DNA of 64,000 nucleotides from Candidatus Aminicenantes bacterium (GCA_037441905.1 JBBIRF010000003.1:39690-103689); one strand, 5' to 3'; positions 8,648-47,780 are shown, counted from the first letter of the stretch. Made by a program: numbers and translations. The notes: generated by a model not told the origin, from the letters alone.

Positions 8648-8664
8648 GCCGAGAGGAGGAGAAG

Positions 8665-10373: not shown

Positions 10374-10410
10374 AGGCGCAGTAATGAGGAAAGAAGAAGG
10401 AGGCAAGAAG

Positions 10411-12791: not shown

Positions 12792-12800
12792 GAGGCAGCC

Positions 12801-18184: not shown

Positions 18185-18573
18185 TAATTATTCCTCCTTT
18201 CTTCTTGAATAAAGGCATTTTTTATTGCCAGTTTTAACTCTTCCAGACCGAATGACTTGATAAAATAAAAAAAGATATCTTGTTCCCGCACCTTGGCTTC
18301 GAGCTTTTTCGAGTTTTTCTTGGTCATCATTATTACCTTAAGCTTTGGGTCAAGACTTTTCAAGATAGAAACAGCTTCGTATCCTTTCATCTCGGGAAGG
18401 TCGACCTCCAGCAGAAGGCAGTCGTAGCTGCCCTCGCTTATTTTCTTGATCGCCTCGGAAAGGTTTTTCCCTGTATCGACGCTGTAGCCATCATTTTCAA
18501 CCTGAGCTGCCAGGTCTTTTCTTTCCCGCGGGTCCGGGTCGATTATAAGGATTTTTTTCTCCGCCGACGTCAT
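18184..18573 (-). CDS. Single-domain response regulator receiver (start at MTSAEKKILIID, ATG 18573)
   Basis: Receiver motifs ILIIDPDPRERKDL ... LLLEVDLPEMKG; GGAG RBS before internal ATG; upstream part of ORF-track ORF lacks homology. Confidence 0.6.
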   Translation of the reverse strand: MTSAEKKILIIDPDPRERKDLAAQVENDGYSVDTGKNLSEAIKKISEGSYDCLLLEVDLPEMKGYEAVSILKSLDPKLKVIMMTKKNSKKLEAKVREQDIFFYFIKSFGLEELKLAIKNAFIQEERRNN

Positions 18574-18904
18574 GGCCAGCTCCCTACACTCAGGGATAGA
18601 GCAATTAACGTGCCAATTTAGCACCCGCCGCAGGGGCAGTAGCCATGCTAAATTATTGAAAATAAAGGATTTATTTTGGAGGAAAGACTGGCCGGAAGTG
18701 ATTCCTGGGAATAAATTATACCCTGAGGTATTTCTCCCCATCCTTATTCCAGAATTGCCACCTTATCGAAAGAAGAATAGAATCTTATCAAAATAAGTAT
18801 TTTCCGACAATAAAAAAAGCTTGCTTTTTTTCATTTTTTCGTATTAGGAATAGAAAGCAGGCAGACGTCCAGTGGCCTGGGGATTGATGCAGGATTAAAA
18901 GGCA

Positions 18905-23651: not shown

Positions 23652-23678
23652 GGGGAATTTTTCCCCACGACTGGGGAA
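23652..23678. promoter_or_regulatory. Candidate activator-binding palindrome GGGGAATTTTTCCCC plus adjacent GGGGAA half-site (also TTCCCC at 23555-23560)
   Basis: 6-bp arms GGGGAA/TTCCCC with TTT centre, ~115-135 bp upstream of the minus-strand sigma-54 promoter; same motif family upstream of hdrC copy 1. Confidence 0.45.
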
Positions 23679-25070: not shown

Positions 25071-27045
25071 TGTCTGATTCCTTTTGCAGGGGCAGAACCA
25101 CGGTAAAGGTTGAACCTTTCCCGGGTTCGCTCGAAACTTCTATCGTCCCTTGATGTTTCTGGATGATGCTGTAGCTGATGGCTAAGCCAAGACCGGTACC
25201 TTTGCCGACTTCTTTGGTGGTGAAAAATGGTTCGAACAGCCGTGACATATCCTCTGGCCTGATCCCGTGGCCGTTGTCCGCAAAAGCGATTCTTATTTGC
25301 TTTTTCTCCAGGTCCATCGAAGTGCTTATGGTTAGCGTTCCTCGGCCGTCCATGGCTTCGGCGGCGTTAAGGATAATATTCATGAAGACCTGCTGTAACT
25401 GGGAAGCATCGGCAATCACACGGGGCAGCGCGCTATATTGCTTATTAATGGCGATGTTCTGGAATAGAGCCTGTTTTTCCATGATGGCCAGAGCCCGCTC
25501 GACAACTTCGTTGACGTCAGTGGCTACCATTTCCGGTTCTTTCGGCCGGGCAAACTCGAGCAACCCTTTAACGATATCCTTACACCGGCTGGTCTCTTTA
25601 ACTATCTTTCTTAAATTTTCGTAAGCTGGAGTATTCTTAGGCGTATCTTCGAGCAGCAGATGGCTGTAGATGAGAATGGCTCCCAGGGGGTTATTAATTT
25701 CATGAGCCACGCCCGCGGCCAGTTTGCCCAGGGAAGCAAGCTTTTCCGACTGAATTAGTTTCGTCTGCATCTCGGTCAGCTCTCTGGTTCTTGCTTCCAC
25801 TTTTTTCTCCAAGGTCCTCCCCCATTCCATCAGCGCTTCGTTCGCCTGACGGAGCTGGTCAATCATTTCGTTGAAGGAGGAAGCCAAATGGCCGAGTTCA
25901 TCCTTTGACCTGATATCAACCTTATGCGAGAGGTCACCCCTGGCTATTTCCTCCGTAGCCATGACCATTCTTTGCAGCGGTCGGATGATCTGCGTTGTCG
26001 AGAAATAGAGGATGACAAGCAGGAAGACGACGCAGAGCGAGGCCATAAAGGTAAAAGTTAGCATTAGTTTATTGGCCGTATCGATGTAAGGCTTTTCGAG
26101 CATGCCGACATAAAGGATGCCGATGATTTTGCCCTCGACATTTCTAATGGGTTCATAAGCGGTAATGTACCAGTCGGTCACGACAAAGGCCCGGTCGACC
26201 CAGGCCTTACCTTCGTCCAGGACTGCCTTTTTTACCTGGGCTGAAAGCAGGGTTCCGATGGCTCTTTCGCCCTTTTCGTTCCGGACGTTGGTCGAGACCC
26301 GGAGGTCGTTGAGAAAAATAGTGGCCGTGCCAACGTCCCGGCCTTTATATTTTTCGCCCTTAAAAACGGTTTCCTTAATCCGGTCGACGATTTCGTAATT
26401 CCGGTTGAGGAGAATTCCTCCATAAAGCACCCCCCGGGTGCGATGGCTTTCATCCTGAATGCTGGCCGCCGCCTTGAGGACAAGCCCGCGGTCTTCGAAG
26501 CTCTTGGGCTTCGGCTCTGCCCGGGGAGTGGGGATGAATTCAAGATAAGCTTGCGCCGCCAGGTCTTCGCCCTCAAGCCTGAGCTGCTCGCCCGGGACAA
26601 CCTGAGGGCCGGCTACTACCCCGCCTTTCAGGGCTAAGCGGACGAGTTCATCTTCGGCTTGAGAATCACCCACGACCCCTGGATTTCTTGTCCGGATGAT
26701 AACTTTTCCAGCTCCGTCCGTAAGCGTGAGAAAATCCAGCCCGAAATCTGTCCTTACCCGGGATAAATACCGGAGCAAAAGGTCGGTATTTCCCGATTTG
26801 AGGGCTTCTTGAATGCTTTCTCTTGAAGCCGTGAGAGTGACGATCTGCTGAATATCGTTAAGTTTTTCGTTGAAAACCATCCAGGCAGCGGCCAGGTCGT
26901 GCTTGACTTTCAGCTGGGCCTGGCCGATGAGAGTGCGCCTAACCAGGCGCGAGCCGATGACGAGCGAAATCAGCCCGCCGACAACAATAACTGCCAGGAA
27001 GCTCAGAATGAGCTTCGTCCGGAGGGAAAGAGCCCTTTCTTTCAT
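25039..27045 (-). CDS. Sensor histidine kinase with periplasmic sensing domain, HAMP, HisKA, HATPase_c
   Basis: Two TM segments flanking ~280-aa extracytoplasmic region, H-box AHEINNPL, G-boxes DNGHGI / GTGLGLAIS. Confidence 0.8.
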   Translation of the reverse strand: MKERALSLRTKLILSFLAVIVVGGLISLVIGSRLVRRTLIGQAQLKVKHDLAAAWMVFNEKLNDIQQIVTLTASRESIQEALKSGNTDLLLRYLSRVRTDFGLDFLTLTDGAGKVIIRTRNPGVVGDSQAEDELVRLALKGGVVAGPQVVPGEQLRLEGEDLAAQAYLEFIPTPRAEPKPKSFEDRGLVLKAAASIQDESHRTRGVLYGGILLNRNYEIVDRIKETVFKGEKYKGRDVGTATIFLNDLRVSTNVRNEKGERAIGTLLSAQVKKAVLDEGKAWVDRAFVVTDWYITAYEPIRNVEGKIIGILYVGMLEKPYIDTANKLMLTFTFMASLCVVFLLVILYFSTTQIIRPLQRMVMATEEIARGDLSHKVDIRSKDELGHLASSFNEMIDQLRQANEALMEWGRTLEKKVEARTRELTEMQTKLIQSEKLASLGKLAAGVAHEINNPLGAILIYSHLLLEDTPKNTPAYENLRKIVKETSRCKDIVKGLLEFARPKEPEMVATDVNEVVERALAIMEKQALFQNIAINKQYSALPRVIADASQLQQVFMNIILNAAEAMDGRGTLTISTSMDLEKKQIRIAFADNGHGIRPEDMSRLFEPFFTTKEVGKGTGLGLAISYSIIQKHQGTIEVSSEPGKGSTFTVVLPLQKESDNDRKSSDSNH

Positions 27046-27132: not shown

Positions 27133-28596
27133 TTAATCTCTTTTTATCTGTTCCACCAACTCGCGACGGCTGTTGTAAATGTTGATGATTAGAGGCATGT
27201 CACCCGGAAGGGCATGAGTGCCGCATGCATGGCAGGGGTCATACGGACGAAAAGCCATCTCCGCTAAATTGAGTAGTCCGTCGGAAACCTTGCCTTCCTT
27301 GATAAAAGCCTTGGCTGCTTTTTCGATCGACATCGTAATGGCGGCTGAATTATTCATCGTGGCGACAATCAGGTTGGCTTCAGTCACAATGCCTTTTTCG
27401 TCGGTTTTATAATGGTGGAATAACGTTCCCCGGGGAGCTTCGACTACCCCCACTCCCTCGGTGGGCGTTTCTGTCGGCACCCGCCGGATGTCCGGGCTGG
27501 TAATTTCTTTGTCTTCCAGCAGGGCTACCATAGCCTCAGCTGCCTGGAGGGCTTCGATCAGACGAGCCCAGTGGAATGCCAGGGTGTTATGAGCCGGTTT
27601 TCCTCCGAGGACCTGGTACATCCTTTCGTATTCCTGTTGCGCTAAGGGAGTGGCCATGCCGTCAGCCGCGTTTAAGCGGGCGAGAGGCGCCACTCGGTAA
27701 ATACTGGTTTCTCTTCCCTCTACGAAGCCCTTCCAGCCAATTTTTTTCAGGTAAGGAAACTTAATGTAAGTCCAGGGCTCGACGTGTTCAGCCACGTGTT
27801 CGAGATAATCAGCGGCCTTAAACTTGGCGAACTCCTTGCCTTCGGGGTCGACCACCCGGATCAGGCCGTCATAAAAATTAACCCTGTTCTTCTCATCAAC
27901 CAGCCCCATGTAATAAGTGACGAGTTTATAAGCGTCGCCGACTACCAGGTCGACGTACTCTTTGTTTTTCAAGACGACGTCGTCGAAGATTTTCAGGGCA
28001 AACTTGGCGAATTCAACCGCATACCGGGCTGTCTCTAAGAATTTTAAGCGATGTTCCTCATCCAGCCCTTTGGAAACGCCGCCCGGAAGTCCGCAGACAG
28101 GGTGAATAACCTTGCCGCCGAGGTAGTTGATGATATCGCGACATTCCCGGCGGACCCTGATTACCTGGCCGCCGATTTCCAGCCCTACTTTACCCAGGAC
28201 ACCCAGAATATTTCTCTCCGCCGCCGGCGCCTGGGGGCCGACGACAAAATCAGGACCGCCCAGGAAAAAGAAATGAAGCGAATGGTCCTCCATCATAAAG
28301 GTGTTGTAAATTAACTCTCTTATCTTGCGGGCGGTTGGGGTTGGCTCGACATGAAAAACGGCGTCAACGCATTTTGTCGAGGCCATATGATGGGCGGTGG
28401 GGCAGACACCGCAGATGCGAGGGGTAATCCGGGGCATCTCTTCCACCGGACGGCCGACCGCGAACTGCTCAAAACCGCGCAGCTCCGGCACTTGAAGAAA
28501 AGCCCTTTCGACATCCCCGGCATCATTGAGGAAAATCTCTATCTTTCCGTGACCTTCAAGCCTGGTTATCGGGTCGATGGTTATTCGCTGACTCAT
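27133..28596 (-). CDS. mvhA: Mvh/Vhu-type (group 3c) [NiFe]-hydrogenase large subunit
   Basis: PRICGVCPTAHH and DPCHACGTHA motifs, 25-aa C-terminal extension. Confidence 0.85.
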   Translation of the reverse strand: MSQRITIDPITRLEGHGKIEIFLNDAGDVERAFLQVPELRGFEQFAVGRPVEEMPRITPRICGVCPTAHHMASTKCVDAVFHVEPTPTARKIRELIYNTFMMEDHSLHFFFLGGPDFVVGPQAPAAERNILGVLGKVGLEIGGQVIRVRRECRDIINYLGGKVIHPVCGLPGGVSKGLDEEHRLKFLETARYAVEFAKFALKIFDDVVLKNKEYVDLVVGDAYKLVTYYMGLVDEKNRVNFYDGLIRVVDPEGKEFAKFKAADYLEHVAEHVEPWTYIKFPYLKKIGWKGFVEGRETSIYRVAPLARLNAADGMATPLAQQEYERMYQVLGGKPAHNTLAFHWARLIEALQAAEAMVALLEDKEITSPDIRRVPTETPTEGVGVVEAPRGTLFHHYKTDEKGIVTEANLIVATMNNSAAITMSIEKAAKAFIKEGKVSDGLLNLAEMAFRPYDPCHACGTHALPGDMPLIINIYNSRRELVEQIKRD

Positions 28597-29567
28597 TTTA
28601 TTGCCTCCAGTTTCCTGCGGCCAAGAATTGACTTGGGCAGGCTAAAACGATAGAAGGTGCCGGCGGGGTCGGCGATAGTCTGGACAACCTTTTCTATTTC
28701 CTTTTCGTCCTTAAAATCGATAAGCGAAGCTAAGGCGGAAAGGAATTTGGCGCCCTGGTCGTAGACCTGGTCGGTTGGCCCGAAGCAACCCCGGCAGGGC
28801 ATGTTGGCCGTGATGCATCTTTCTTCGCAACCAGTTCTCGTAGCCGGTCCCATGCAGATAACCCCCTGGGCCAAAAAGCACTTTTCCGGGTCAAGAAGGA
28901 CTTCCCACGGCCGCTTAAACTCTTTAATCGTTAATTTCTCCGGCTTGGTCTTATTCCGGTCGCAATCGTCGCACAGAGATTTGTTGGGAGAAAGCACAGC
29001 TCCCTTCGGAGGGAGCTTACCCTCTAAAATAGCCCCGACAGCGTTGAGGATGAGGTGGCGGGGAGGAGCACAGCCGGGGAGATAATAGTCAACATCGATA
29101 ACCTGGTCGAGGGCCCTCACGGTGTCATAAAAAGCGGGCAGGGTTAATTCTTTGCCCTCGACAACGACTTTTTCCTGAGGAACAACGCCATCAGGGTTAA
29201 CCGTGGACGGGGTGGTGAAATAGGCCCGGCGGAAAATGGCCTCTTTGTTCCAGAAATTCGCCAGCCCGGGTATTCCGCCAAGATGCGAGCAGCTTCCGAA
29301 GGCAACGACGAGCTGCGATTTCCGGCGGAGCAGATGAACCATTTCTTCCTGTTCCGATAACCTGACCGACCCGTTAATAAAGCTAACCGCGATCGAGCCG
29401 TCAGCCATGGCCTCGACATCTTTTTTCTTAAAATCGAGGGCTACAGGCCAGAAAACGATGTCAACCGCTTCGACTACCTTAAGGATGTCTTCGGCCAGGT
29501 CGACAACCGCTTCCTCGCAGCCGCCGCAAGATGCACACCAGTAAAAAGCAACTTTGGGCTTACTCAT
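28593..29567 (-). CDS. mvhG: Mvh-type [NiFe]-hydrogenase small subunit
   Basis: [12 protein letters not shown]-terminus, multiple Cys cluster motifs ([21 protein letters not shown]). Confidence 0.8.
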
Positions 29568-29994
29568 GGGAACCTCCGTTGAACTTGAAGTTTAGCGGCC
29601 CGAGGCGCCGGACCTGTTCGGTAAACTCATTAACCACCTGCTGAAACCTGGCCCCTTCTGAGGCCGAAACCCATTCGAGCCTGAACCTTTCTTTTTCGAT
29701 GCCCAGCTGTTCGAGCAACCGCGAAAGAAGTTTATAACGGCGCAAGGCTTTATAATTACCTTCTTGATAATGGCAATCTCCAGGATGGCAGCCGGAAATC
29801 AGCACGCCGTCAGCCCCCTCGCGGAATGCCTTGAGGACAAACTGGGGGTCAACCCGGCCGCTGCACATAACCCGGATGATCCTTATGTTAGGGGCATAAG
29901 TCATCCTGGCCGTGCCTGCGAGGTCGGCCCCGGTATAAGAACACCAATTACAAAGGAACCCCACTAAGCGGGGTTCAAACCCAGCTTGACTCAT
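29560..29994 (-). CDS. mvhD: MvhD-like [2Fe-2S] electron-transfer subunit
   Basis: [18 protein letters not shown]...MCSGRVD...[11 protein letters not shown] motif pattern typical of MvhD. Confidence 0.8.
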
Positions 29995-31859: not shown

Positions 31860-33686
31860 TCACTCAACTCTTACGGCGCCAAAATTGCATACGTCAAAAC
31901 AGACGCCGCACTTAATACACTTGGCCTGGTCTATCTTATGAGATTCGCCCTTAGCCCCGGTTATGGCTTCAGAGGCGCAGTTCCGCCGGCAGACGTCGCA
32001 GCCATGACCCTTTTCCAGACAGATTTGCGGGTCAATGGTGTAAACGTTAAGTTGCCGGCAGACATGAGCCGGGCATTTTTTATCACGGATATGGGTGATA
32101 TATTCATCGCGGAAGTAGCGAAGCGTCGTGAGAACCGGGTTAGGAGCGGTTTTTCCTAAACCGCAGAGCGACGCTTCTTTGACGGTCTGGGCGAGTTCTT
32201 CGAGCAAAACCAGGTCTTCTTCTGTCCCTTTGCCTTCAGTGATTCGGGTGAGGATATCGAGCATGGCCTTTGTTCCCTCCCGGCAAGGAGTGCATTTGCC
32301 GCAGCTTTCATCCTGGGTGAAAGACAGGAAGTAACGAGCGACATCCACCATGCAGGTATCTTCGTCCATGACGACCATGCCGCCCGAGCCCATCATGCTT
32401 CCCGCCTCAGTCAAGCTTTCATAATCAATCGGGAGGTCGATCTTTTCCGCCGGGATGCATCCTCCGGAAGGGCCGCCAGTTTGGACAGCTTTGAATTTTT
32501 TCCCGCCAGGAATACCGCCGCCGATGTCATAAATAATTTCGCGCAGGGTTATTCCCATCGGGACCTCAACCAGGCCGGTGTTGTTAATTTTGCCGACAAG
32601 AGAAAAAACCTTGGTACCCTTTGAGGTCGGTGTCCCGATCGAGGCGAACCATTTTCCTCCCCGGTCGATGATAACAGGGACATTAGCCCAGGTTTCAACG
32701 TTATTGATGCAGGTAGGTTTACCCCAGAGTCCCTTTTCCGCCGGATAAGGCGGCCTCGGTCTTGGTTCGCCCAAACGGCCCTCGATTGAGGCCAGCAGGG
32801 CGGTTTCCTCGCCGCAAACAAAGGCGCCGGCTCCCCGGACAACTCTGATGTCGAAGTCAAAACCGGTCCCTAAGATATCATGACCGAGCAGGCCAAGACT
32901 GCGGGCCCGGTCGAGTGCGATATAGATTCTTTTTACGGCCAGGGGATATTCATTCCGGACATAAATGAAGCCCTGGGTCGCCCCGATGGCCTTGGCCCCG
33001 ATGAGCATTCCCTCGATAACCGAATGCGGGTCGGCTTCGAGGATGCTTCGGTCCATGAAAGCGCCCGGGTCGCCTTCGTCGCCGTTGCAGACGAGATATT
33101 TTTCTCCGTTGGGCGAAGGTGAATTCCGGACGAGTTGCCACTTTAGGCCCGTGGGAAAACCGGCACCGCCCCGGCCCCGCAGCCCGGAAACGGTGATTTC
33201 CTGGATTATTTCTTCCGGCGTCATCTGGGTCAGAGCCTTAACCAGGGCTTTATACCCGTCACGGGCTATGTAATCTTCGATTTTTTCCGGGTCGATGAGG
33301 CCGCGGTTGCGCAGGGCGACGAGCACCTGTTTCTTGAAAAAGTTGATTTCGCTCAAAACCGGCACGGGTGTTTTTTCTTCGGGCGGCTGGTACATGAACT
33401 TCTTCACCGGCCGGCCTTTAAGGAGATGTTCTTCCACCAGCAGCGGCACATCTTTCACGCTCAGGGTTTGGTAAAAGATGTTGCCGGGCTGGACGACAAG
33501 CAGCGGGCCTCGTTCACAGAACCCGTTGCAACCGGTAGTCACCACTTTAACTTCGTTTTCCAGCCCCTGGCGCTTAATTTCTTTTTCCAGAGCTTCTTTA
33601 ATTTCGAAGGCGTGGTTGGAGACACACCCCGTCCCGGCGCAGACCATTAAGTGGGTCCGGTATAGCTTTTCTTTTGCTTCCGCCAT
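31860..33686 (-). CDS. NuoF-like NADH-binding FMN/[4Fe-4S] subunit with N-terminal Trx-like Fdx domain
   Basis: GRGGAGFPTGLKWQ, ESCGKCTPCREG, C-terminal Cys clusters. Confidence 0.8.
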   Translation of the reverse strand: MAEAKEKLYRTHLMVCAGTGCVSNHAFEIKEALEKEIKRQGLENEVKVVTTGCNGFCERGPLLVVQPGNIFYQTLSVKDVPLLVEEHLLKGRPVKKFMYQPPEEKTPVPVLSEINFFKKQVLVALRNRGLIDPEKIEDYIARDGYKALVKALTQMTPEEIIQEITVSGLRGRGGAGFPTGLKWQLVRNSPSPNGEKYLVCNGDEGDPGAFMDRSILEADPHSVIEGMLIGAKAIGATQGFIYVRNEYPLAVKRIYIALDRARSLGLLGHDILGTGFDFDIRVVRGAGAFVCGEETALLASIEGRLGEPRPRPPYPAEKGLWGKPTCINNVETWANVPVIIDRGGKWFASIGTPTSKGTKVFSLVGKINNTGLVEVPMGITLREIIYDIGGGIPGGKKFKAVQTGGPSGGCIPAEKIDLPIDYESLTEAGSMMGSGGMVVMDEDTCMVDVARYFLSFTQDESCGKCTPCREGTKAMLDILTRITEGKGTEEDLVLLEELAQTVKEASLCGLGKTAPNPVLTTLRYFRDEYITHIRDKKCPAHVCRQLNVYTIDPQICLEKGHGCDVCRRNCASEAITGAKGESHKIDQAKCIKCGVCFDVCNFGAVRVE

Positions 33687-33699
33687 TTTTCACTCCTTC

Positions 33700-34089
33700 C
33701 TACAGGTCGGTCTTTTCGCTGCCAATACCCAGGGCATAGGCAGTGACGATTTGTCCCCCGAGGACATGCTTCTCGAAGATCTCCTGGGCCTTTTTCTCAG
33801 TCAGGTCGACGTACTTAACCGGAGCCTGGCCGGCCAGCTCGACCGTTGCCATCGGCTCGCGGCTGCAGAGGCCGGCACATCCGGATGTCGTCAGAAGAAC
33901 GTCCGTCGTTCCTCGCTTTTCCACTTCCCGGAGAAAAGCATTCATGATATTTCTGGCGCCGGCCGCAATCCCGCAAGTGCCCATATGGACAATGATTTTG
34001 GCCTTGAATTGGCCCTGCTCGCGGATAAAAATCGACTTTCTGGCCTCTTGCCTTATTTTTTCGAGGTCTTCAAGCGTGAGCTTTGGCAT
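33700..34089 (-). CDS. Stand-alone thioredoxin-like [2Fe-2S] ferredoxin (homolog of the N-terminal domain of the NuoF-like protein)
   Basis: IIVHMGTCGIAAGA...SGCAGLCSREP, aligns to residues 1-120 of 10917-12791 product. Confidence 0.6.
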   Translation of the reverse strand: MPKLTLEDLEKIRQEARKSIFIREQGQFKAKIIVHMGTCGIAAGARNIMNAFLREVEKRGTTDVLLTTSGCAGLCSREPMATVELAGQAPVKYVDLTEKKAQEIFEKHVLGGQIVTAYALGIGSEKTDL

Positions 34090-34101: not shown

Positions 34102-34557
34102 TCATTTCTTGTATTTTTTGATGATGCCCGGGACCTTCGTTTGAGTAACTTTTCCGTGGACTTCCTCGCCAACCATAACTACGGGCGCAAGGCCACAGCA
34201 CCCCAGGCAACGGACAGCATCCAGGCTGAAAAGCCGGTCTTCGCTCGTCTCGCCCGCCTTTATGCCGAGTTCCCGCTCGAATTTCTCCAGAACCAGCTGG
34301 GCTCCGCGGACATGACAGGCGGTCCCGAGACACACATGGATGGGATGTTTGCCCTTAGGTTTGAGGCTAAAAGCCCGGAAAAAAGTAGCTAAGCTAAGAA
34401 TGCGACTAAGGGGGACATCCATCTCCCGGGAAATTTGCTCCAGGGCTTCCCGCGGCAGGTAGGAATATTCTTCCTGCAGGTCCTGGAGCATGGCGATGAG
34501 GGAACTCTCATCGCGAGCGTATTTTTCCAGGATTTCAGAGACTTTGGCTTCGACCAT
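34102..34557 (-). CDS. NuoE-like [2Fe-2S] subunit
   Basis: CLGTACHVRGA...CLGCCGLAPV. Confidence 0.75.
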   Translation of the reverse strand: MVEAKVSEILEKYARDESSLIAMLQDLQEEYSYLPREALEQISREMDVPLSRILSLATFFRAFSLKPKGKHPIHVCLGTACHVRGAQLVLEKFERELGIKAGETSEDRLFSLDAVRCLGCCGLAPVVMVGEEVHGKVTQTKVPGIIKKYKK

Positions 34558-35101
34558 GTTCCCTCCTTAAAAAAGATAACCTATGGTCAATATAATTCCT
34601 GATGGCGTTTAAAACCTCAGGATGATTGAGTGCTATTCCGGGGTAAGTTTCTTTAAACTGCCGCGTGTTGAACTCAAATTCTGCCCCGTCGCGGCGATGA
34701 TAATAGACCCATTCTATTTCCGGATGCCCGGCTATCAAGGTAACCAGGGTTAAGGCCAAGTCACCCATCGGCTTGAGGTCGATGTGGCTCAAACGAAACG
34801 ACGCCCGTACTTTTGTTCCTTTTTGCGGGGCTGAAGTCAGCGTCAGGTCGCCGCCCGCCGCTCGACAGGCTTCTTGAAGGAAGGGCAAACCGAGCCCGAT
34901 TCTTCTTGTCTGGCGCGTGGAATAAAAAGGGTCGAGGGCGCGACGGCATTCTTCTTCGCTCATCCCTCGCCCGTTATCCTCCACCTCGAGAAGAAGAAGG
35001 TCGGCAGCGGCGTCTTCGATAATAGTAATCTTTATGCGTGAGGCGCCTGCATTCACCGAATTCTCGGCGATGTCCAGAAGGTGAAGCGATAAGTCTTCCA
35101 T
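34535..35101 (-). CDS. Histidine-kinase-like ATPase (HATPase_c only; start likely ATG 35101 MEDLSL...)
   Basis: LLEVEDNGRGM and GLGLPF G1/G2-box-like motifs, no HisKA/receiver. Confidence 0.55.
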   Translation of the reverse strand: MEDLSLHLLDIAENSVNAGASRIKITIIEDAAADLLLLEVEDNGRGMSEEECRRALDPFYSTRQTRRIGLGLPFLQEACRAAGGDLTLTSAPQKGTKVRASFRLSHIDLKPMGDLALTLVTLIAGHPEIEWVYYHRRDGAEFEFNTRQFKETYPGIALNHPEVLNAIRNYIDHRLSFLRREHGRSQSL

Positions 35102-35108
35102 GGCTATC

Positions 35109-35840
35109 TCAATTGAGAATCCTTCTGCCTTCTTGTTGCCGCAGGCTGAGAACGATTTCTTCAAAGGTTAAGTCAGTCATCAAGAAAGAAGTGGTGGCGG
35201 CGCCGATTTCTTTGAGGTCATGGGCGTCGGAAAAAGTTACCAGGGGATATGGTTCAGGGAATTTTTTTCTGGCCTCCGCCAGCGATAGACGGGATGAGAT
35301 TTCCAGCCCGTCCAGGGCGAGAGAAGCAGGAATAAACCCAAGCTGGCTGATGAGCGAAAACGCTTCCCGGTCGACATGGGAGGCTATGGCCAGACCCCCG
35401 AGCTGATGGATGAGATTGACTGTTTCTTCCAGGCTGAGGGTCGTCGCGCCGATCAGCAGGCGGTCGTTGAAGCGGAGGACTTCGCCTTCCTCGTTCACCA
35501 CTACCTGGAGTCCGTAAAGTTCCGGGTTGTTTTCTCCCGGAAGATGTTCGTAGATTTTCTCCTGGAGCTCGAAAGCGGCCTCAACCCGGCCAAAAAGGGC
35601 TAACAGGTGCACTTCTTCCTTCGTCGTCACTTCGATTCCCGGGATCACCGGAAGCGAGAATTTCTCGCCCGCCGCGACCAGGGCTGGAATGTTTTCAGCC
35701 GAGTTGTGGTCGCAGATGCCGATTATTTCGATATCCTTATCCCTGGCCATTTTAACAATGCCCCGGGGGGACAGGTTCAGCTCGCCGCAGGGCGAAAGGC
35801 AAGTGTGGATGTGAAGGTCAGTTTTCACCGCTCGCAGCAT
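35109..35840 (-). CDS. PHP-domain (polymerase/histidinol phosphatase) metal-dependent phosphoesterase
   Basis: DLHIHTCLSPCG...ICDHNS PHP His/Asp motifs. Confidence 0.65.
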   Translation of the reverse strand: MLRAVKTDLHIHTCLSPCGELNLSPRGIVKMARDKDIEIIGICDHNSAENIPALVAAGEKFSLPVIPGIEVTTKEEVHLLALFGRVEAAFELQEKIYEHLPGENNPELYGLQVVVNEEGEVLRFNDRLLIGATTLSLEETVNLIHQLGGLAIASHVDREAFSLISQLGFIPASLALDGLEISSRLSLAEARKKFPEPYPLVTFSDAHDLKEIGAATTSFLMTDLTFEEIVLSLRQQEGRRILN

Positions 35841-35843
35841 CTC

Positions 35844-36185
35844 CTATTCTTTTTCCATGAGCAATTGATACAACCGGCCCGAGATAACGAAGGAGTTATC
35901 CAGGGTTCCTAAAAGGGGAATTTTTTCTTCTTCGGCCTTGCGTTTTGTTTCCGCTTCCGGCTGGCGGTCATGAACAATGATGATGCCTGCCAGGTCTTTA
36001 AGCCGCGCCACGGCAATAATATTGGGATGCGTCTGGAGAGTTATCCAGAGATTGCCCTCCCGGGCATGGGCGATCACATCGCTCAAGAGGTCGGAGGTAT
36101 AACCGCCGGTCACTTCTGTTTCCAGCTGGCCGGCTTCAGTCAAGACTTTGAGGCCGAGATGAGAAATTATTTCTTTTAAAATCAT
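35844..36185 (-). CDS. DRTGG-domain protein
   Basis: Short ~113 aa; LLSDVIAHAREGNLWITLQTH pattern resembling DRTGG fold; paralog of 38016-38378. Confidence 0.5.
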   Translation of the reverse strand: MILKEIISHLGLKVLTEAGQLETEVTGGYTSDLLSDVIAHAREGNLWITLQTHPNIIAVARLKDLAGIIIVHDRQPEAETKRKAEEEKIPLLGTLDNSFVISGRLYQLLMEKE

Positions 36186-37558
36186 GCTTCCTCTTCCTTT
36201 TTGTTTTTGGCCGAACTGATTTCAGCCTGACCCCTCCGGCAACCGGTTTTTTCCACGAGCTCGATGATTTCTTTGGCCAGAGCGGTTATTTTTTGCGGCC
36301 AGAGAAAAACGCAATCAGCCAGCTCGACCTCGCCTTGAATCAGGTCCTCAGCGAATGCCTGGCAGGAGGGTGAACCGCAGGCGCCGCAGTCAATCTGAGG
36401 CAGCTTTTCATAGATGGCCTCTTTTTGTTTTTTCTTCTGGATTGCTTTGCCGATGTCTTCATCCAGAGGGGCAAGAGGTCGGGGCTCAAGCTGGCCCTCG
36501 ATGAAATAATATTTTTGTTCGTAGCGTCGCCTCACATCCCGGATGTCCGGGCAGGCTTTAATTTTTTCGTATTCGAGAGTTTCAATTAGCTTTATTATTT
36601 TGTTATATGAGCTGTATGTATTTTCGACGGTTAACGAACCGCCGACACATCCGTGGGTACAAGAATAGGCCTCGATAAAGTCGATGTTGCGGATTTTGCC
36701 TTTTTCGATGTCGTCGAACACTTTGATCAATTCAGCCAGGGCAGAAACAGCGATCGAATTCCGCAGCCGGAGTGTCCGGCTCATCCCACCGACGACCGCC
36801 CACCCGATACCGAGAATGCAAATGCTTTCGAGAGCTCGGCGCTCAGGCTCGGTTTCTTCCAGACTCTCCATGGCGGAAAGGAGCGGGCCATAAACATCGG
36901 CGATCGAAAGAGCCCCGTCAAGATGGCTCCGGCCTTTTTCTGCCGGCTGTTTGATCGAGATCATCTTTACAGGGCAGGGAGTTATGTAGAAAGTGCCGAT
37001 ATCCTTTTCCGGGATTTCCAGTTGCTTCGACTTTTTCCTTTTTATTTCCCTGGCAGCGATTTCTCGCGGGGTGTCGATCGGAATGATGTGGTCGATGAGG
37101 TCAGGGTATTTGACCTGAATGAGGCGAACCACCGTGGGGCAGGCGTTCGAAATCAGGGGCCTTGCGCCGTTATAGTTACGCAGAAATTCTTGAATCGCAA
37201 AACTTACTTCTCCGCAGGTGTTTGCCAGGTCGACGGCCTCGTCGAACCCGAGTTTTTTTAAACCGGCTAATATCTTGGCCGGGAGGATTTCGCGGCCAAA
37301 CTGGGCATAGAGCGCGGGAGAAGGGACGGCGATGGTGTAGCGGAACCGGCTGAGCTCGCCGAACGGGTCGGTAAGGGGGATGATAGCCCCGTTGGGGCAG
37401 ACATTAATGCACTCGCCGCAGTCGATGCACCTTTCCTCGATCATCCGGGCTTTGCCTTTACGGACGCGAATTGCCTGGGTTGGACAAACGCGCAGACAAC
37501 GCATCCGTCCCTCGCAGCGCTCCTGGTCGAAGCGAATCGAATGATAATACTGGTTCAT
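36182..37558 (-). CDS. [FeFe]-hydrogenase-like Fe-S protein (H-cluster-domain homolog with altered L1 motif) + C-terminal CxxCxxxxC Fe-S motif; putative sensory/regulatory
   Basis: N-terminal 2x[4Fe-4S] (CLRVCPTQAI, CIDCGECINVCP); SNACPTV (vs TSCCP), TPCPVKM (vs MPCxxK), EAYSCTHGCVGGS (vs ExMACxxGCxxGG); C-terminal CGACGSPSCQAF..ADCVF. Confidence 0.6.
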   Translation of the reverse strand: MNQYYHSIRFDQERCEGRMRCLRVCPTQAIRVRKGKARMIEERCIDCGECINVCPNGAIIPLTDPFGELSRFRYTIAVPSPALYAQFGREILPAKILAGLKKLGFDEAVDLANTCGEVSFAIQEFLRNYNGARPLISNACPTVVRLIQVKYPDLIDHIIPIDTPREIAAREIKRKKSKQLEIPEKDIGTFYITPCPVKMISIKQPAEKGRSHLDGALSIADVYGPLLSAMESLEETEPERRALESICILGIGWAVVGGMSRTLRLRNSIAVSALAELIKVFDDIEKGKIRNIDFIEAYSCTHGCVGGSLTVENTYSSYNKIIKLIETLEYEKIKACPDIRDVRRRYEQKYYFIEGQLEPRPLAPLDEDIGKAIQKKKQKEAIYEKLPQIDCGACGSPSCQAFAEDLIQGEVELADCVFLWPQKITALAKEIIELVEKTGCRRGQAEISSAKNKKEEEA

Positions 37559-38019
37559 CGCACCTTCTTCTGGTTAAGAAAAATCGTGATTCTGAGGAGG
37601 GTGCCTTTGCCCACTTCGGAGGTTATCTCAAACCGGTCGGCGTTTTTCTTGATGTTGGGCAAACCCATCCCGGCGCCAAACCCCATTTCGCGCATCTCTG
37701 GAGTGGCGGTCGAATAACCCTCCTGCATGGCCAGTTCGATATCAGGAATCCCCTCGCCTTCGTCTTCCACCCAAAAATTTACTTCGCCCGGGGTCACCTC
37801 TAAAATAAAAGTCCCGTGCCGGGCATACATCACAACGTTCATTTCAGCCTCGTATGCCGCGATTGCCGCCCGGCGAACTACGGCTGGTTCTATCCCCAGC
37901 TCCTTAAGGATTTCTTTAATCTGGGTTGAAACATGGCCGGCATGATGGAAATCGCCGCCCTGAATAGGAAAGGATTCGACAAAGCAGCTTTCTCGTCCGT
38001 TTGCCGGCAGGTTAGTCAT
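37555..38019 (-). CDS. Histidine-kinase-like ATPase / anti-sigma-factor-type Ser kinase fold (RsbW/SpoIIAB-like)
   Basis: EDEGEGIP and GFGAGMGLP nucleotide-binding box-like motifs, 154 aa, no HisKA. Confidence 0.55.
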   Translation of the reverse strand: MTNLPANGRESCFVESFPIQGGDFHHAGHVSTQIKEILKELGIEPAVVRRAAIAAYEAEMNVVMYARHGTFILEVTPGEVNFWVEDEGEGIPDIELAMQEGYSTATPEMREMGFGAGMGLPNIKKNADRFEITSEVGKGTLLRITIFLNQKKVR

Positions 38020-38378
38020 CGGTCGACTTCTTCATCCTTGACGCTTTTCAGACCCCGGCCGAAGAGAAGGCCGCAAGCCTGATACATCAGAAATTCGGTG
38101 GATAAAAGCGGGATGCCCTTTTTCTTGGCCAGGGCAATTCCTTCCTGGTCGGGTATTTTGCCCCGGACATAAAGAATTGCTTTGGCTTCGATGATATCGG
38201 CTGTCCTGACGCTCTGAACGTTGGCTAAGCCAGTGATCAGGAGCATGCCTGGTTTACCAAGAGCTAAGACGTCGCTCATCAGGTCAGAGGCTCCCGCCCT
38301 TTCTACCTCATGGTCGAGGTATTCTTCTCCGCAGATAACTCTGGACCGGAGCAACTCCTTTATTTCGCTGAGTTTCAT
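38016..38378 (-). CDS. DRTGG-domain protein
   Basis: LLITGLANVQSVRTADIIEA motif (DRTGG-like), ~120 aa. Confidence 0.55.
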   Translation of the reverse strand: MKLSEIKELLRSRVICGEEYLDHEVERAGASDLMSDVLALGKPGMLLITGLANVQSVRTADIIEAKAILYVRGKIPDQEGIALAKKKGIPLLSTEFLMYQACGLLFGRGLKSVKDEEVDR

Positions 38379-38379
38379 T

Positions 38380-39231
38380 TCAGTGTTCTTTTTCCACGAC
38401 TTTTATAATCATATCTCCTTTGCGGATAACCCTCTCGGAAGGCGTGATAGTTGCGGGACAATTTTCCCAGCAAGCACCACACCCGCTGCATTTGCTGATG
38501 TCGACATACCGCGGTTTTTTTCTTATTTTTACCTTGAAGTTGCCGACAAACCCGGAGACTTCAGCCACTTCGCTCCAGGTCATCAGGACGATATTCGGGT
38601 GTTTACCCACCTCGCTCATCTTGGGCGTAAGAATGCAGGCGGCGCAATCGAGCGTCGGAAAAGTCTTATCGAGATGGGACATATGACCGCCTATCGAGGG
38701 TTCCTTCTCCACCAGGTAGACCTTTTTGCCAGAATTAGCGTAAGTAAGGGCGGCGTGGATGCCGGCAATGCCGCCGCCAACGATGAGGACTTCTGGCCTT
38801 ACGGGTACTTCTTTCTTGAGCAGCGGGTCATGCAGCGCCACTCGCCGGACAGCCGCCGAAACCATAGCTTTGGCCTTTTTGGTGGCTTTTTCCGGGTCTT
38901 CCGTCACCCAGGAGACTTGCTCCCGAATGTTGGCCATCTGGAAAAAGAAGGGGTTTAAGCCACCTTCGTTTGTCACCGTGCGAAAAGTTGGTTCGTGCAT
39001 TAAGGGAGAACAGGAGGCGACGACAACTCGATTGAGGTTATAGTCCTTGATCGCCTGGCGGATGAGCTCCTGACCAGGGTCTGAGCACATGAACTTATAT
39101 TCCTTGGCCACCGCCACGTTATCGAGCTGGGCGGCAAAAGCCACTACTTCGCTCACGTTGACTTTGCCCGCAATGTTAGTGCCGCAATGGCAAATAAAAA
39201 CGCCGATTCTTGGCTCACCATTCTGGTTCAT
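38380..39231 (-). CDS. HdrA-like flavoprotein N-terminal fragment (paralog of 9531-10373)
   Basis: IGVFICHCGTNI..SCSP, LIVGGGIAGIHAAL..VYLVEKEPSIGGHM, CSGCGACWENCP; ATGA overlap with hdrB. Confidence 0.7.
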   Translation of the reverse strand: MNQNGEPRIGVFICHCGTNIAGKVNVSEVVAFAAQLDNVAVAKEYKFMCSDPGQELIRQAIKDYNLNRVVVASCSPLMHEPTFRTVTNEGGLNPFFFQMANIREQVSWVTEDPEKATKKAKAMVSAAVRRVALHDPLLKKEVPVRPEVLIVGGGIAGIHAALTYANSGKKVYLVEKEPSIGGHMSHLDKTFPTLDCAACILTPKMSEVGKHPNIVLMTWSEVAEVSGFVGNFKVKIRKKPRYVDISKCSGCGACWENCPATITPSERVIRKGDMIIKVVEKEH

Positions 39232-40115
39232 CTGGCTCCTCCCATGCTAATTTTTTGCCAGAAAGGCTTAAGGTCGATAATTGACCGGCTAAAGCCCAGG
39301 TCTTCCTTAGGCAGACCAAACGCCAGGCCCATCAACTGACTGAAGTACAAGACTGGCATCATTACGTCCTCACCGTAAGCTTTAACGATCTTGTCTTGAA
39401 GAATTTCCAGGTTGAACTGACAGAGAGGACATATGGTGACAATAGCGTCAGCTCCTCGACGCCTGGCTTCTTTAAGCAGGATAAAATTAAGCCTTTTGCC
39501 TACTTCTTCGATTGTTCCTGTCAGCGACCCACCACAGCAGCGAGTCTTAGCTGAATAAGGAACCGGTTCAGCCCCGATGGCTTCCATCAGGCTGTCGAGC
39601 GTCGTCGGATAATCCGGGTCGTCGAAGTCTGTAAAAGGCCGGACCAGCTGACACCCGTAATAGCAGGCCACTTTCAACCCCGTAAGCTTATTGCGAACCT
39701 TCTCCCGCACCCGGTCGAGGCCGATGTCTTTCACCAGAACTTCGAGCGGATGTTTAACTTCAACGCCACCGTGGTAGGCGCAGCCGGCTTGTTCCAAGGC
39801 ATGATTGATCTTTTTTGCTTTCTCGGTCTCAGCCTTCAAGACTTTATTTGCCTTTTTCAGGGTAAGATAGCATCCGGCGCAGGGGGCTACGATGTCGCTG
39901 GCTTTCTTTTCGGCCAGGCTAAGGTTGCGACCACAGATGGCCGTTGCCAGCGTCTCGTCGACCGAAAAATAGGCGGTCGCCCCGCAGCAGTTCCAGTCCT
40001 CTAGCTCGTCGAGCGGCAGACCCACCTCTTTAAAGACCGGAAGGATTGATTCTTCATATTGCTTGGAGTTACCTTTAAGAGAGCACCCGGGATAATAAAT
40101 ATAATTATTATTCAT
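39228..40115 (-). CDS. hdrB: HdrB-like (two CCG domains)
   Basis: NCCGATAY and CCGGSLT motifs. Confidence 0.8.
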   Translation of the reverse strand: MNNNYIYYPGCSLKGNSKQYEESILPVFKEVGLPLDELEDWNCCGATAYFSVDETLATAICGRNLSLAEKKASDIVAPCAGCYLTLKKANKVLKAETEKAKKINHALEQAGCAYHGGVEVKHPLEVLVKDIGLDRVREKVRNKLTGLKVACYYGCQLVRPFTDFDDPDYPTTLDSLMEAIGAEPVPYSAKTRCCGGSLTGTIEEVGKRLNFILLKEARRRGADAIVTICPLCQFNLEILQDKIVKAYGEDVMMPVLYFSQLMGLAFGLPKEDLGFSRSIIDLKPFWQKISMGGAR

Positions 40116-40693
40116 CAGGCCGCCTCCTTGATTGCCTTCAACAGGGCCTTTAATTGCTTCCTGTCCTTAATGGCTTCTCGCTTAAAACTCATCCGGCCGG
40201 TCTTGAGCAGCTTCAACCCGAGAGGAGTCATTCTTAGCAGGCCCATCGGGTTGCGTGATTTCAGGTAAAGCCGCAGGATAAGCCAGAGTTCGGAATTACG
40301 GCCGTAGTTCCGGATAAGCTGGCTCATTTCCTTATCCAGGACAGGGATGGCCAGGCCCTGAGGGTATACCTTTTCCTCGATAGCTTTTCTCTTGAGAGCA
40401 TACATTACTTCCGTAATCTCGATTTTCGCCGGGCAACGTACCTGGCAGGTGTAACAGGAGGAACAGAGCCAGATGGTGAAGCTCCGTAATGCCTCGTCCT
40501 TGAACCCGTTCTTAACCAGGCCGATAATTTTCCGCGGGGGGTAATCCATATAAACCGACATCGGGCACGAGGAGCTGCAGGTGCCGCACTGGATACAACG
40601 GTCAAGGTCTTCAGCCCCCGACATTTCCTTAATTTCTTCGAGGAAGGTCTTATCTAACTCTTCCTCGTATTTAACTTTGCGCTGGATATCCAT
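40115..40693 (-). CDS. hdrC: HdrC-like (2x[4Fe-4S])
   Basis: CIQCGTCSSSCP, CSSCYTCQVRCP. Confidence 0.8.
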   Translation of the reverse strand: MDIQRKVKYEEELDKTFLEEIKEMSGAEDLDRCIQCGTCSSSCPMSVYMDYPPRKIIGLVKNGFKDEALRSFTIWLCSSCYTCQVRCPAKIEITEVMYALKRKAIEEKVYPQGLAIPVLDKEMSQLIRNYGRNSELWLILRLYLKSRNPMGLLRMTPLGLKLLKTGRMSFKREAIKDRKQLKALLKAIKEAA

Positions 40694-40970: not shown

Positions 40971-41071
40971 AAATGGAATTTTAGTTGTAAGTTAATTGTC
41001 TTGTCAACAGAAAAAATGAAAATATTTCATTCGTTGATTTTTCGGGCGAATCTTAACTATAATGGCGCCGC

Positions 41072-43551: not shown

Positions 43552-43626
43552 GGGCCGTTAGCTCAGAGGGAGAGCACCGGCCTTTTAAGCCGGGTGTCGC
43601 TGGTTCGAGTCCAGCACGGCTCACCA
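43552..43626 (+). tRNA. tRNA-Lys (anticodon UUU) with encoded CCA
   Basis: Cloverleaf folded by hand: acceptor GGGCCGT/ACGGCTC, anticodon loop CTTTTAA, T-loop GGTTCGAGTCC. Confidence 0.8.
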
Positions 43627-43635
43627 CTCTAAGGC

Positions 43636-43713
43636 GCCCCTGTCGTCTAGCTCGGTCTAGGACATCGCCCTTTCAAGGCGGCAACACGGGTTCAAATCCC
43701 GTCGGGGGCGCCA
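43636..43713 (+). tRNA. tRNA-Glu (anticodon UUC) with encoded CCA
   Basis: Acceptor GCCCCTG/CGGGGGC, anticodon loop CTTTCAA, T-arm ACGGGTTCAAATCCCGT; resembles bacterial tRNA-Glu. Confidence 0.75.
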
Positions 43714-47705: not shown

Positions 47706-47780
47706 TGGTGGGCGGTACTGGGTTCGAACCAGTGACCCCCGGTTTGTAAGACCGATACTCTACCACTGAGCTAACCGCCC
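47706..47780 (-). tRNA. tRNA-Val (anticodon UAC) with encoded CCA
   Basis: Reverse complement reads GGGCGGTTAGCTCAGTGGTAGAGT...CTTACAA...GGTTCGAACCCAGTACCGCCCACCA. Confidence 0.8.

Follow-up and report, generated by a model that had tools for sequence, protein, structure and literature searches.

A cassette around a putative sensory Group D [FeFe]-hydrogenase in a split-HdrA/Bfu/Mvh operon of a Candidatus Aminicenantes bacterium

What does a hydrogenase-like protein with an altered H-cluster motif do in the middle of a [NiFe]-hydrogenase operon, and what do the small proteins and ATPases around it do? The question is raised by six minus-strand genes (38378–34535) in a 64-kb stretch of the genome of a Candidatus Aminicenantes bacterium (JBBIRF010000003.1:39690-103689), here called the window, whose positions serve as coordinates throughout. 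The six are coupled in translation and encode, in order, a DRTGG protein (DRTa), a SpoIIAB-like ATPase (HAT1), an [FeFe]-hydrogenase-like protein (HydS), a second DRTGG protein (DRTb), a PHP-family phosphoesterase (PHP) and a GHKL ATPase (HAT2). They had been proposed as a cassette from the sequence alone (the original prediction). The six open reading frames (ORFs) were present at their coordinates, Pfam upheld the domain assignment of each, and Pfam and NCBIfam confirmed that the cassette is attached to a [NiFe] Mvh system and not to an [FeFe] enzyme. The cassette with its altered motif is of a known kind, the poorly understood “sensory [FeFe]-hydrogenase” signalling cassette. Across related loci its constant partner was the NuoE/HydD/NuoF/BfuA core, and not an [FeFe] or [NiFe] hydrogenase as such. 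In the window the gene order was HdrCB–HdrA(N)–cassette–NuoE–HydD–NuoF–[BfuA::HdrA(C)]–MvhDGA (Table 1).

HydS and its place in Group D

HydS carried the motifs NACP at residue 138, TPCPVK at 193, EAYSCTHGCVGGS at 296 and Cx2Cx4Cx16C at 391–416. When aligned by phmmer to solved [FeFe]-hydrogenases, its residues C140, C195, C300 and C304 matched the four H-cluster ligands (CpI C300, C355, C499 and C503), in agreement with the predicted retention of the cluster-ligating motifs and unlike the generic Fe-S protein that missing ligands would have indicated, and A139 fell at the position of the relay Cys (CpI C299). Clustering of the family at 50% identity gave 358 clusters (E ≤ 1e-30), from which 131 full-length representatives were aligned. 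The four H-cluster cysteines were invariant in these representatives and in 121 close homologues, and the C-terminal cysteines (C391, C394, C399 and C416) were invariant or nearly so in the representatives. The C299 column held A42, S26, F16, T13 and H6, and never Cys. The predicted loss of the relay Cys to Ala was therefore real, but it is the published norm of Group D/M2e and not a peculiarity of this locus. Because the ligand and C299 pattern fits the published definition, we assign HydS by sequence to the Group D (M2e) putative sensory [FeFe]-hydrogenase family, whose studied member is TamHydS from Thermoanaerobacter mathranii. HydS had no PAS match in Pfam and scored under the cutoffs of the NCBIfam group A and B1 models. 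A sensory, non-catalytic role, also proposed from the window sequence, agrees with the current literature view of the family (PMC8163306, PMC3561251). The biochemistry of TamHydS has been known since 2019–2020 (TamHydS studies: PMC8163306, PMC10407848, PMC11803613, PMC13104023).

For residue mapping, the HydS of Thermoanaerobacterium butyriciformans (L077) reproduced the TamHydS numbering with an offset of one, and published mutagenic primers confirmed the GGE252 and DFFE289GLAC motifs used. TamHydS and the window HydS share the N-terminal ferredoxin domain, the four-Cys H-domain, the C-terminal Cx2Cx4Cx16C motif and the lack of a PAS domain. Both have Ala at the CpI C299 position (A137 in TamHydS) and keep E289, and the flanking genes were the same in 30 Bacillota loci. 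However, the window HydS was only ~38% identical to the TamHydS orthologue. It had Met (M259; Ile in relatives) in place of E252, Ile in place of the conserved K58, Arg in place of the second Cys of the first ferredoxin motif, and Tyr at the CpI M497 equivalent (Tam L291).

E252 has been proposed as the Group D proton relay in place of Cys, and H2 oxidation was no longer detectable in the TamHydS variants E252V and E252D. In 121 homologues (68–99% identical) this position held I98, M16, V5, L1 and T1. It was Glu in all 30 [FeFe]-linked HydS and in none of the Hdr/Mvh-linked loci, Gln being among the replacements. In the first ferredoxin motif, C15-x5-C21-x3-C25 (CxGRMxC), R18 replaced the second Cys; the position was Arg in 119/121 close homologues and Cys in 113/132 family representatives. 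With three Cys left, the site might hold a [3Fe-4S] cluster or recruit a ligand other than Cys; the second N-terminal [4Fe-4S] motif was complete. Invariant in the 121 close homologues were the bridging C304, K198 (CpI K358), E296 (Tam E289) and the GG of the L3 motif. HydS retained all H-cluster and accessory-cluster ligands but one N-terminal Cys, and both known proton-relay residues were gone. The HydS of this clade thus form a divergent subgroup, which should be even less catalytic than TamHydS.

Group C (M2f) HydS, such as TmHydS of Thermotoga maritima and the Hfs type, resemble the window HydS in the lost relay Cys, in the C-terminal four-Cys cluster and in a gene position adjoining a bifurcating NuoEF-type enzyme and kinase-like genes. 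They differ in having a fused PAS domain and PP2C/RsbW-type partners, whereas here a separate DRTGG protein follows the C-terminal cluster. The Thermotogae, named earlier as carriers of the six-gene block, are not supported as an example of it: the literature assigns the Thermotoga protein to the PAS-containing M2f/Group C type.

Could HydS be without the [2Fe] subcluster in this lineage, and act as an Fe-S sensor of redox state (ferredoxin or NAD(H)) or give the DRTGG/ATPase module its scaffold? Consistent with this, hydE/F/G and catalytic [FeFe] genes turned up neither in the window nor in the flanks of related Hdr/Mvh-type loci, HydS has lost the two proton relays and an N-terminal Cys, and the module works without HydS in other loci. 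Motif scans of 84 loci gave HydE/F/G-like genes in the flanks of only two, both from Bacillota (L033 and L073). However, maturase genes are often unlinked, and at most 21 kb was covered per related genome versus 64 kb here. The invariance of C304, K198 and the L3 GG, across 121 homologues as distant as 68% identity, fits continued selection for the H-cluster pocket. We consider a HydS without the subcluster quite unlikely.

Partner enzymes of the cassette

About 90 loci were compared, of which 80 were species-representative genome loci retrieved by family alignment and some others were found by HAT2 seeding. The order DRTGG-HATPase-HydS-DRTGG-PHP was kept across the 80 loci, Thermoanaerobacterium included. 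The whole sixteen-gene architecture of the window was present in contigs with 93% and 76% identical HydS, in 14 of the 80 loci overall, and in two more via HAT2 seeding. HydS identity in these loci went down to ~44%. Among the names in the record titles were Candidatus Aminicenantes, Vicinamibacterales, Bryobacteraceae and Ignavibacteria; such titles, e.g., “Eubacteriales” for some Hdr/Mvh-type metagenome-assembled genomes, may mislead. Proteins with at least 90% identity to the MvhA and the chimera of the window carry the name Candidatus Aminicenantales.

Thirty Bacillota loci had the order DRT-HAT1-HydS-DRT-PHP-NuoE-HAT2-HydD-NuoF-HydA([FeFe]), with HAT2 between nuoE and hydD, as published for TTE0887, Cthe_0335 and Athe_1292 upstream of the A1 TR(M3) HydABC (PMC3561251). 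The window differs from these Group D clusters in the order PHP-HAT2-NuoE (PHP-NuoE-HAT2 in Bacillota) and in its downstream “HydA”, an HdrA(C) fusion without an H-domain. All 35 catalytic HydA found beside Group D cassettes in Bacillota (e.g., L062:15910-17661) had TSCSPGW versus the textbook TSCCPxW. The same TSCSPGW occurs in HydA1 of Acetobacterium woodii (7Q4V), and HydA1 of Thermoanaerobacter kivui (8A6T) has TSCCPSW.

Other loci carried other third modules. Five had NuoE-NuoF-[BfuA with a molybdopterin-like domain]-NfnA-like-GltD-like (L019, L020, L022, L056 and L071), two had a selenocysteine FdhA::BfuA (L046 and L063), with FocA in L046, and one (L034) had genes for both [NiFe] subunits, small and large, together with a BfuA lacking the H-domain. 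Some of the non-[FeFe] loci had the full cassette, others a reduced DRT / DRT-HAT1 / HydS form. NuoF was found in 50 of the 66 loci having at least 8 kb downstream. HAT2 was present in only one of the 16 loci without NuoF, the other 15 stand-alone cassettes lacking it. The earlier placement of the block beside NuoEF-type bifurcating hydrogenases thus stands for the NuoEF core, but the partner is NuoE/HydD/NuoF/BfuA and no hydrogenase of either kind.

HAT2 seeding also recovered three loci (L085, L086 and L087) in which DRT-HAT1-DRT-PHP-HAT2, in the same order and without HydS, lay beside a Bfu core. These HydS-less sets show that the five accessory genes stand on their own as a module linked to Bfu; HydS can be inserted between HAT1 and the second DRTGG gene but is not obligatory. 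NuoE-HydD-NuoF of the three loci was joined, by fusion or linkage, to GltD-like or molybdopterin modules, and in L085 and L087 NuoE was fused to a response-regulator receiver domain.

Several variants were seen along the way. The BfuA::FdhA genes beside a full cassette (L046:15686-18418 and L063:13191-15899) had a TGA within HCARLUH, indicating selenocysteine, and in L046 FocA came next. L022:8736-15556 had tandem HydS cassettes: a reduced DRT / DRT-HAT1 / HydS set plus NuoE, then a full DRT-HAT1-HydS-DRT-PHP-HAT2. L007:7869-14748 (minus strand, opposite to its cassette) encoded a 1110-aa protein in which a BfuA N-terminus, an HdrA(C)-like part and another, full HdrA-like part are combined, and a 1194-aa NuoF-containing protein, another Hdr-Bfu variant. 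Five loci with reduced cassettes (L015, L020, L022, L056 and L071) shared a conserved Cys-rich protein of ~200 aa without an assigned family, encoded directly before the cassette, ~600 nt ahead of its first DRTGG gene. An Nfn/GltD-like Bfu cluster followed the cassette in four of the five (L020, L022, L056 and L071), and L015 ends just past HydS.

These contexts bear on a reading of HydS as a structural, electron-delivering subunit of an Hdr-Bfu-Mvh complex, that is, a low-rate second H2 site or valve in a hybrid [FeFe]/[NiFe] enzyme and no sensor. Structural genes flank hydS, their translation is coupled to its own, and HydS keeps the N-terminal F-cluster domain, of the type that carries catalytic electrons in TamHydS. 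TamHydS turns over H2, slowly, and hybrid [FeFe]/[NiFe] complexes are known in archaea. However, both proton-relay residues are missing here and TamHydS variants at E252 lose H2 oxidation. Elsewhere HydS is fused to an ATPase or DRTGG domain, occurs in stand-alone cassettes without a redox partner and stands beside non-H2 enzymes (Fdh, Nfn-like), and the accessory genes persist without it. We judge a structural role highly unlikely.

The enzyme next to the cassette is itself unusual. Residues 2–187 of the chimera encoded between NuoF and MvhD matched the [FeFe] A6/HydA/HoxU/NuoG N-terminus, and residues 197–581 matched positions 264–639 of the HdrA2 model (NCBIfam). The break in HdrA lies between model positions 258 and 264, inside the inserted 2x[4Fe-4S] ferredoxin domain: the first CxxCxxCxxxCP motif closes HdrA(N), and the HdrA part of the chimera opens with the second. 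Precisely at this break the BfuA-type N-terminus is joined on, which would put the NuoEF module on the HdrA branch thought to lead to ferredoxin. Between the two halves, ~8.5 kb is inserted, comprising the cassette, NuoE, HydD, NuoF and the BfuA N-terminus. All Bfu features were there (Pfam, NCBIfam), namely the FMN/NADH and Fe-S domains of BfuB, the NuoE-like [2Fe-2S] BfuC and the BfuA N-terminus (residues 1–190), and NAD(H)/ferredoxin electron bifurcation by this core is predicted from its genes. A second, paralogous Hdr-Bfu operon at 8012–14576 (plus strand) encoded HdrC', HdrB', HdrA(N)', NuoE', a HydD-fused NuoF' and BfuA::HdrA(C)', 41–62% identical to the first, and had neither cassette nor Mvh genes. 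Because this operon has no cassette, the cassette sits exactly where HdrA(N) meets NuoE in an Hdr-Bfu layout that already existed.

The closest Bfu family members, including Bam-Bfu and NiFe-HydABCSL, share BfuB, BfuC and the BfuA-type N-terminus with the window, and as in Bam-Bfu the gene cluster also encodes a further bifurcating flavoprotein, of the HdrA type. The window differs from Bam-Bfu in its split HdrA, in the in-frame fusion of BfuA to the C-terminal two thirds of HdrA, and in its partners, which are HdrBC and MvhADG and not a tungsten benzoyl-CoA reductase. The methanogen HdrABC-MvhADG, which works by flavin-based bifurcation, has its counterparts in HdrB (2x CCG), HdrC, MvhD/G/A with intact [NiFe] motifs and an HdrA covered end to end. 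Here, however, HdrA is made of two polypeptides, the C-terminal part fused to the BfuA N-terminus, and the host is a bacterium. Schut et al. (2022, PMC9304861), in their survey of Bfu enzymes, list the types [FeFe], [NiFe], Fdh, Nfn, Bam (with HdrA), Codh, Por and Mbh. An Hdr-Mvh type is not among them, the cassette is not discussed, and metagenomic data were excluded. The gene content suggests a bacterial enzyme that would couple two different bifurcation sites, which would bear on the balance of H2, NADH and ferredoxin in uncultured Aminicenantales.

Accessory proteins and a proposed signalling route

Among 150 representative clusters, HydS was fused to a C-terminal DRTGG domain in ten, DRTGG+HydS fusions occurred in two and a HATPase_c_2+HydS fusion in one (P0152). 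DRTGG+HAT1 fusions were found in eight loci and PHP+HAT2 fusions in two (L018 and L047). Pfam-checked fusions were P0135, P0158, P0126 and P0152, together with DRTGG+HAT1 in L020. The C-terminal DRTGG sits where Group C sensors carry their PAS domain. A HATPase-fused “C1” hydrogenase has been reported in Hydrogenedentota. These natural fusions suggest that the proteins could form one signalling complex.

None of the curated NCBIfam models was above cutoff for any cassette protein. The AlphaFold2 model of DRTa (predicted local distance difference test, pLDDT, 95) matched AF1212 (2IOJ) in Foldseek with a template modelling (TM) score of 0.79, followed by the DRTGG domain of a CBS-PPase from Clostridium perfringens (3L2B) and then by HPr kinase and MurE N-terminal domains. 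We also considered a STAS-like antagonist role for the DRTGG proteins and rejected it, as no STAS structure was among the fold matches and Pfam gave no STAS match. Neither Pfam nor the fold search recognized a DNA-binding domain in them. Their Ser35 is invariant.

The two ATPases were of different kinds. The best solved relative of HAT1 was the anti-sigma F factor SpoIIAB (E = 2e-11), its NCBIfam spIIAB match (46 bits) was under the cutoff, and its ATP-binding N, G1 and G2 boxes were invariant. In HAT2 the matches to histidine-kinase CA-domain profiles were confined to residues 1–105. Its AlphaFold2 model (pLDDT 86.5) had MutL, PMS2 and TopoVI-B N-terminal fragments as best full-length matches, at a modest TM of ~0.5, and the extra ~80 C-terminal residues formed an alpha/beta domain without a helical hairpin. 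The DHp/HisKA domain of two-component histidine kinases was found in neither HAT1 nor HAT2 (Pfam; HAT2 model). The common label of RsbW/SpoIIAB-like ATPases given to both earlier thus fits HAT1, but not HAT2, a histidine-kinase-type GHKL protein without DHp and with an extra domain. In PHP the metal-binding residues H10, H12, D44, H45, E70, H78, H155, D205 and H207 were all invariant. Its nearest solved relatives in the PDB profile search were pAp phosphatase, RNase AM and EndoQ-type enzymes; an identity as a CpsB/YwqE-type protein-tyrosine phosphatase was rejected, the same search giving no such match.

Like the SpoIIAB/SpoIIAA/SpoIIE and RsbW/RsbV/RsbU modules, the cassette combines a small GHKL Ser-kinase/anti-sigma-like ATPase with small partners and a phosphoesterase. 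It differs in that the partner is DRTGG and not STAS, the phosphoesterase PHP and not PP2C, and a sigma factor is lacking. Of the four features of the RsbW/SpoIIAB partner switch that had been suggested, the GHKL kinase-like HAT1 is present, and three fail: STAS, PP2C and an adjacent sigma factor or regulator are absent. The cassette is not a partner switch of the canonical RsbW kind. Clustering of upstream ORFs from the 80 loci gave no conserved regulator or sigma gene adjoining the cassette, only lineage-specific synteny.

A transcriptional output would have HAT1 act as an anti-sigma factor or kinase that frees a distant sigma or transcription factor upon H2, and so regulate the operon together with other genes of hydrogen metabolism, as in classical partner switching. 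The likeness of HAT1 to SpoIIAB/RsbW, an ECF-type sigma gene downstream in one related locus (L089) and the label “predicted transcriptional regulator” that some sources give to DRTGG proteins point in this direction, as does the literature, which proposes kinase-mediated regulation of the adjoining hydrogenase. Nonetheless, we regard such an output as unlikely. STAS partner, PP2C and sigma gene are not conserved near the cassette, the DRTGG proteins lack a DNA-binding domain, and HAT2 tracks the Bfu genes, down to its place between nuoE and hydD in Bacillota.

The reading that we prefer, and to which we give an even chance, is that HydS is the H2 input to a DRTGG/ATPase module controlling the Bfu-type enzyme, the cassette being an accessory of the NuoEF-type (Bfu) bifurcating core. 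HydS would bind and split H2 at a non-turnover H-cluster and then shift conformation. DRTb would occupy the PAS place of the Group C sensors and pair with DRTa, a pairing proposed because DRTGG is a dimerisation and ligand-binding fold. The pairing would switch the ATPase or kinase activity of HAT1, and PHP with HAT2 could be a second, Bfu-linked arm resetting or relaying the signal. The likeliest output would be post-translational control of the Hdr-Bfu-Mvh complex, affecting how active it is, how it is assembled or which way its electrons flow; a dedicated transcription factor is less likely.

Several points weigh against this H2-sensing role. No experiment ties any cassette protein to signalling. 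The C-terminal cluster of TamHydS is not H2-reduced, which makes it hard to see how a signal would get to a C-terminal partner, and the phospho-relay steps are guesses, because PHP is near nucleotidases and nucleases and not protein phosphatases, and HAT2 is as MutL-like as kinase-like. HydE, HydF and HydG were not found among all plausible ORFs of the window with NCBIfam, nor seen within 10 kb of 14 related loci, and H-cluster assembly in the lineage is therefore unproven. In 16 of the 66 loci the cassette had no nearby Bfu core. The survey was seeded on similarity to window proteins, which biases the context frequencies. A plain neighbour-joining tree, built from 80 family members with no Group A, B or C sequences among them and lacking support values, placed the window HydS with other non-Bacillota members.

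Might the two ATPases, PHP and the DRTGG proteins instead be assembly or maturation factors of the Bfu flavin/Fe-S core, with no part in signalling? Their tight association with Bfu genes does not depend on the third module and holds even without HydS; HAT2 is like the MutL/Hsp90-class GHKL ATPases and PHP like nucleotide-processing enzymes. We find this barely credible: many characterised Bfu operons and the paralogous operon at 8012–14576 do without the cassette, stand-alone cassettes have no Bfu core, and a hydrogenase-like input fused to DRTGG or ATPase would be hard to explain.

Extending the H2-input reading, DRTGG-ATPase-DRTGG-PHP-ATPase could be a general and as yet unrecognized post-translational control module of Bfu enzymes, with HydS as its plug-in H2 sensor acting via a PAS-like DRTGG heterodimer. 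It would govern a “double-bifurcating” Hdr-Bfu-Mvh supercomplex in Aminicenantales and related Acidobacteriota/Ignavibacteria. We put this forward as a tentative and rather doubtful proposal. If true, the Bfu core would be wired via the BfuA::HdrA chimera into the low-potential HdrA branch, linking H2, NAD(H), ferredoxin and disulfide.

Group D is an intensively studied model for scaffold tuning of the H-cluster, and its latest paper asks for interaction partners to be identified (PMC13104023). The two DRTGG proteins and the SpoIIAB-like ATPase are candidate partners, backed by the natural fusions, in a module that would serve the NuoEF/Bfu core and not [FeFe]-hydrogenases as such. In the natural E252-less subgroup catalysis should be minimal and sensing, if real, cleanest. 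In the literature searched we found no report of the E252-less three-Cys HydS variant, of a split-HdrA/Bfu/Mvh operon with the cassette conserved across several phyla, of Group D beside non-[FeFe] enzymes (any Bfu core), of HydS-less cassettes or of fusion evidence for HydS partners. No paper there joined DRTGG, PHP and hydrogenase, DRTGG with hydrogenase gave only unrelated matches, and the accessory-gene locus tags of model organisms appeared only in omics tables.

Operon layout and further features of the window

The ORF map with Pfam and NCBIfam gave sixteen closely packed genes on the minus strand, from 40693 to 27133 (Table 1). From hdrC to BfuA::HdrA(C) the genes overlap or are spaced by at most 13 nt, with 4-nt start/stop overlaps along DRTa-HAT1-HydS-DRTb, and because of this spacing they very probably form one transcription unit. 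The only bigger gaps were 96 nt before mvhD and 87 nt before the Cache-HAMP histidine kinase gene. For HAT2, the ATG at 35101 (188 aa, as annotated in relatives) is a likelier start than the TTG at 35164. The Mvh translation showed the motifs RxCGxC and DPCxxC.

Table 1 Features of the cassette operon and its flanks in the window.
Feature	Position	Strand	Evidence or remark
sigma-70-like promoter, TTGACA-18-TAAAAT	40978-41007	-	11/12 consensus match only; ~285 nt upstream of hdrC
HdrC	40115-40693	-	Pfam Fer4_8/Fer4_17
HdrB	39228-40115	-	Pfam CCG x2
HdrA(N), N-terminal third of HdrA, 283 aa	38380-39231	-	HdrA2 model positions 1-258 only
DRTa, DRTGG single-domain, 120 aa	38016-38378	-	weak Pfam DRTGG/PucR match, 19 bits; AlphaFold2 fold
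HAT1, SpoIIAB/RsbW-like GHKL ATPase, 154 aa	37555-38019	-	Pfam HATPase_c_2 / HATPase_c
HydS, 458 aa	36182-37558	-	two Fer4 motifs; Fe_hyd_lg_C E = 5e-27; C-terminal FeS PF04060 E = 1e-13
DRTb, DRTGG single-domain, 113 aa	35844-36185	-	Pfam DRTGG, 25.7 bits
PHP-family metal-dependent phosphoesterase, 243 aa	35109-35840	-	Pfam PHP + PHP_C
HAT2, GHKL ATPase, 188 aa	34535-35101	-	Pfam HATPase_c E = 4e-17
NuoE/HydC (BfuC), [2Fe-2S] subunit	34102-34557	-	Pfam 2Fe-2S_thioredx E = 6e-50; NCBIfam HoxE/NuoE
HydD-like small thioredoxin-like [2Fe-2S] protein	33700-34089	-	Pfam, NCBIfam
NuoF/HydB (BfuB)	31860-33686	-	N-terminal 2Fe-2S, FMN/NADH site, 4Fe-4S, C-terminal 2x[4Fe-4S]; Pfam, NCBIfam
BfuA::HdrA(C) chimera, 585 aa	30091-31848	-	BfuA/HydA-type N-terminus (2Fe-2S + 2x[4Fe-4S]) + HdrA C-terminal two thirds; NCBIfam
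MvhD	29560-29994	-	Pfam FlpD
MvhG	28593-29567	-	Pfam Oxidored_q6
MvhA, group 3c [NiFe]-hydrogenase	27133-28596	-	Pfam NiFeSe_Hases; NCBIfam VhuA E = 9e-128
Cache-HAMP histidine kinase	25039-27045	-	Pfam; downstream of mvhA
sigma-54 response regulator	23703-25070	-	Pfam; after the Cache-HAMP kinase
terminator-like hairpin with T-run	23652-23666	-	after the response regulator

No sigma-54 promoter was found upstream of hdrC, both perfect sites in the window being elsewhere. The 282-nt hdrC leader had no Rfam family match and its structure was not exceptional (z = -1.6). The only Rfam matches in the window were three tRNA genes, at 43552–43710 (plus strand) and 47709–47780 (minus strand). The terminator scan of the window gave no more matches than shuffled sequence.

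The first perfect sigma-54 consensus, TGGCACCTTTTTTGCT, lies at 7903–7918 (plus strand), ~95 nt upstream of the paralogous Hdr-Bfu operon; the cassette operon had only the sigma-70-like promoter. The second, TGGCACGTTAATTGCT, lies at 18600–18615 (minus strand), just upstream of the receiver-domain part of the ORF at 18184–18741. Roughly estimated, chance alone would give ~0.06 perfect matches in 64 kb, against the two found. A Cache-HAMP kinase also followed mvhA in loci L001, L004 and L088, and the kinase and sigma-54 regulator found here may control the paralogous operon.

Between 19374 and 23443 (minus strand) there was a group 3b sulfhydrogenase-like [NiFe] operon, encoding a Fer4_22 protein and gamma, delta and alpha subunits. 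Its large subunit gene had one in-frame TAG at 19950–19952 (KRSR*QGKSY), for which a pseudogene, an error in sequencing or recoding might account. A HypA-like gene (recognized by eye), a putative HypB and a putative hydrogenase maturation protease were found at 14709–16204 (minus strand), between two hydrogenase-related regions; this set would serve [NiFe] maturation.

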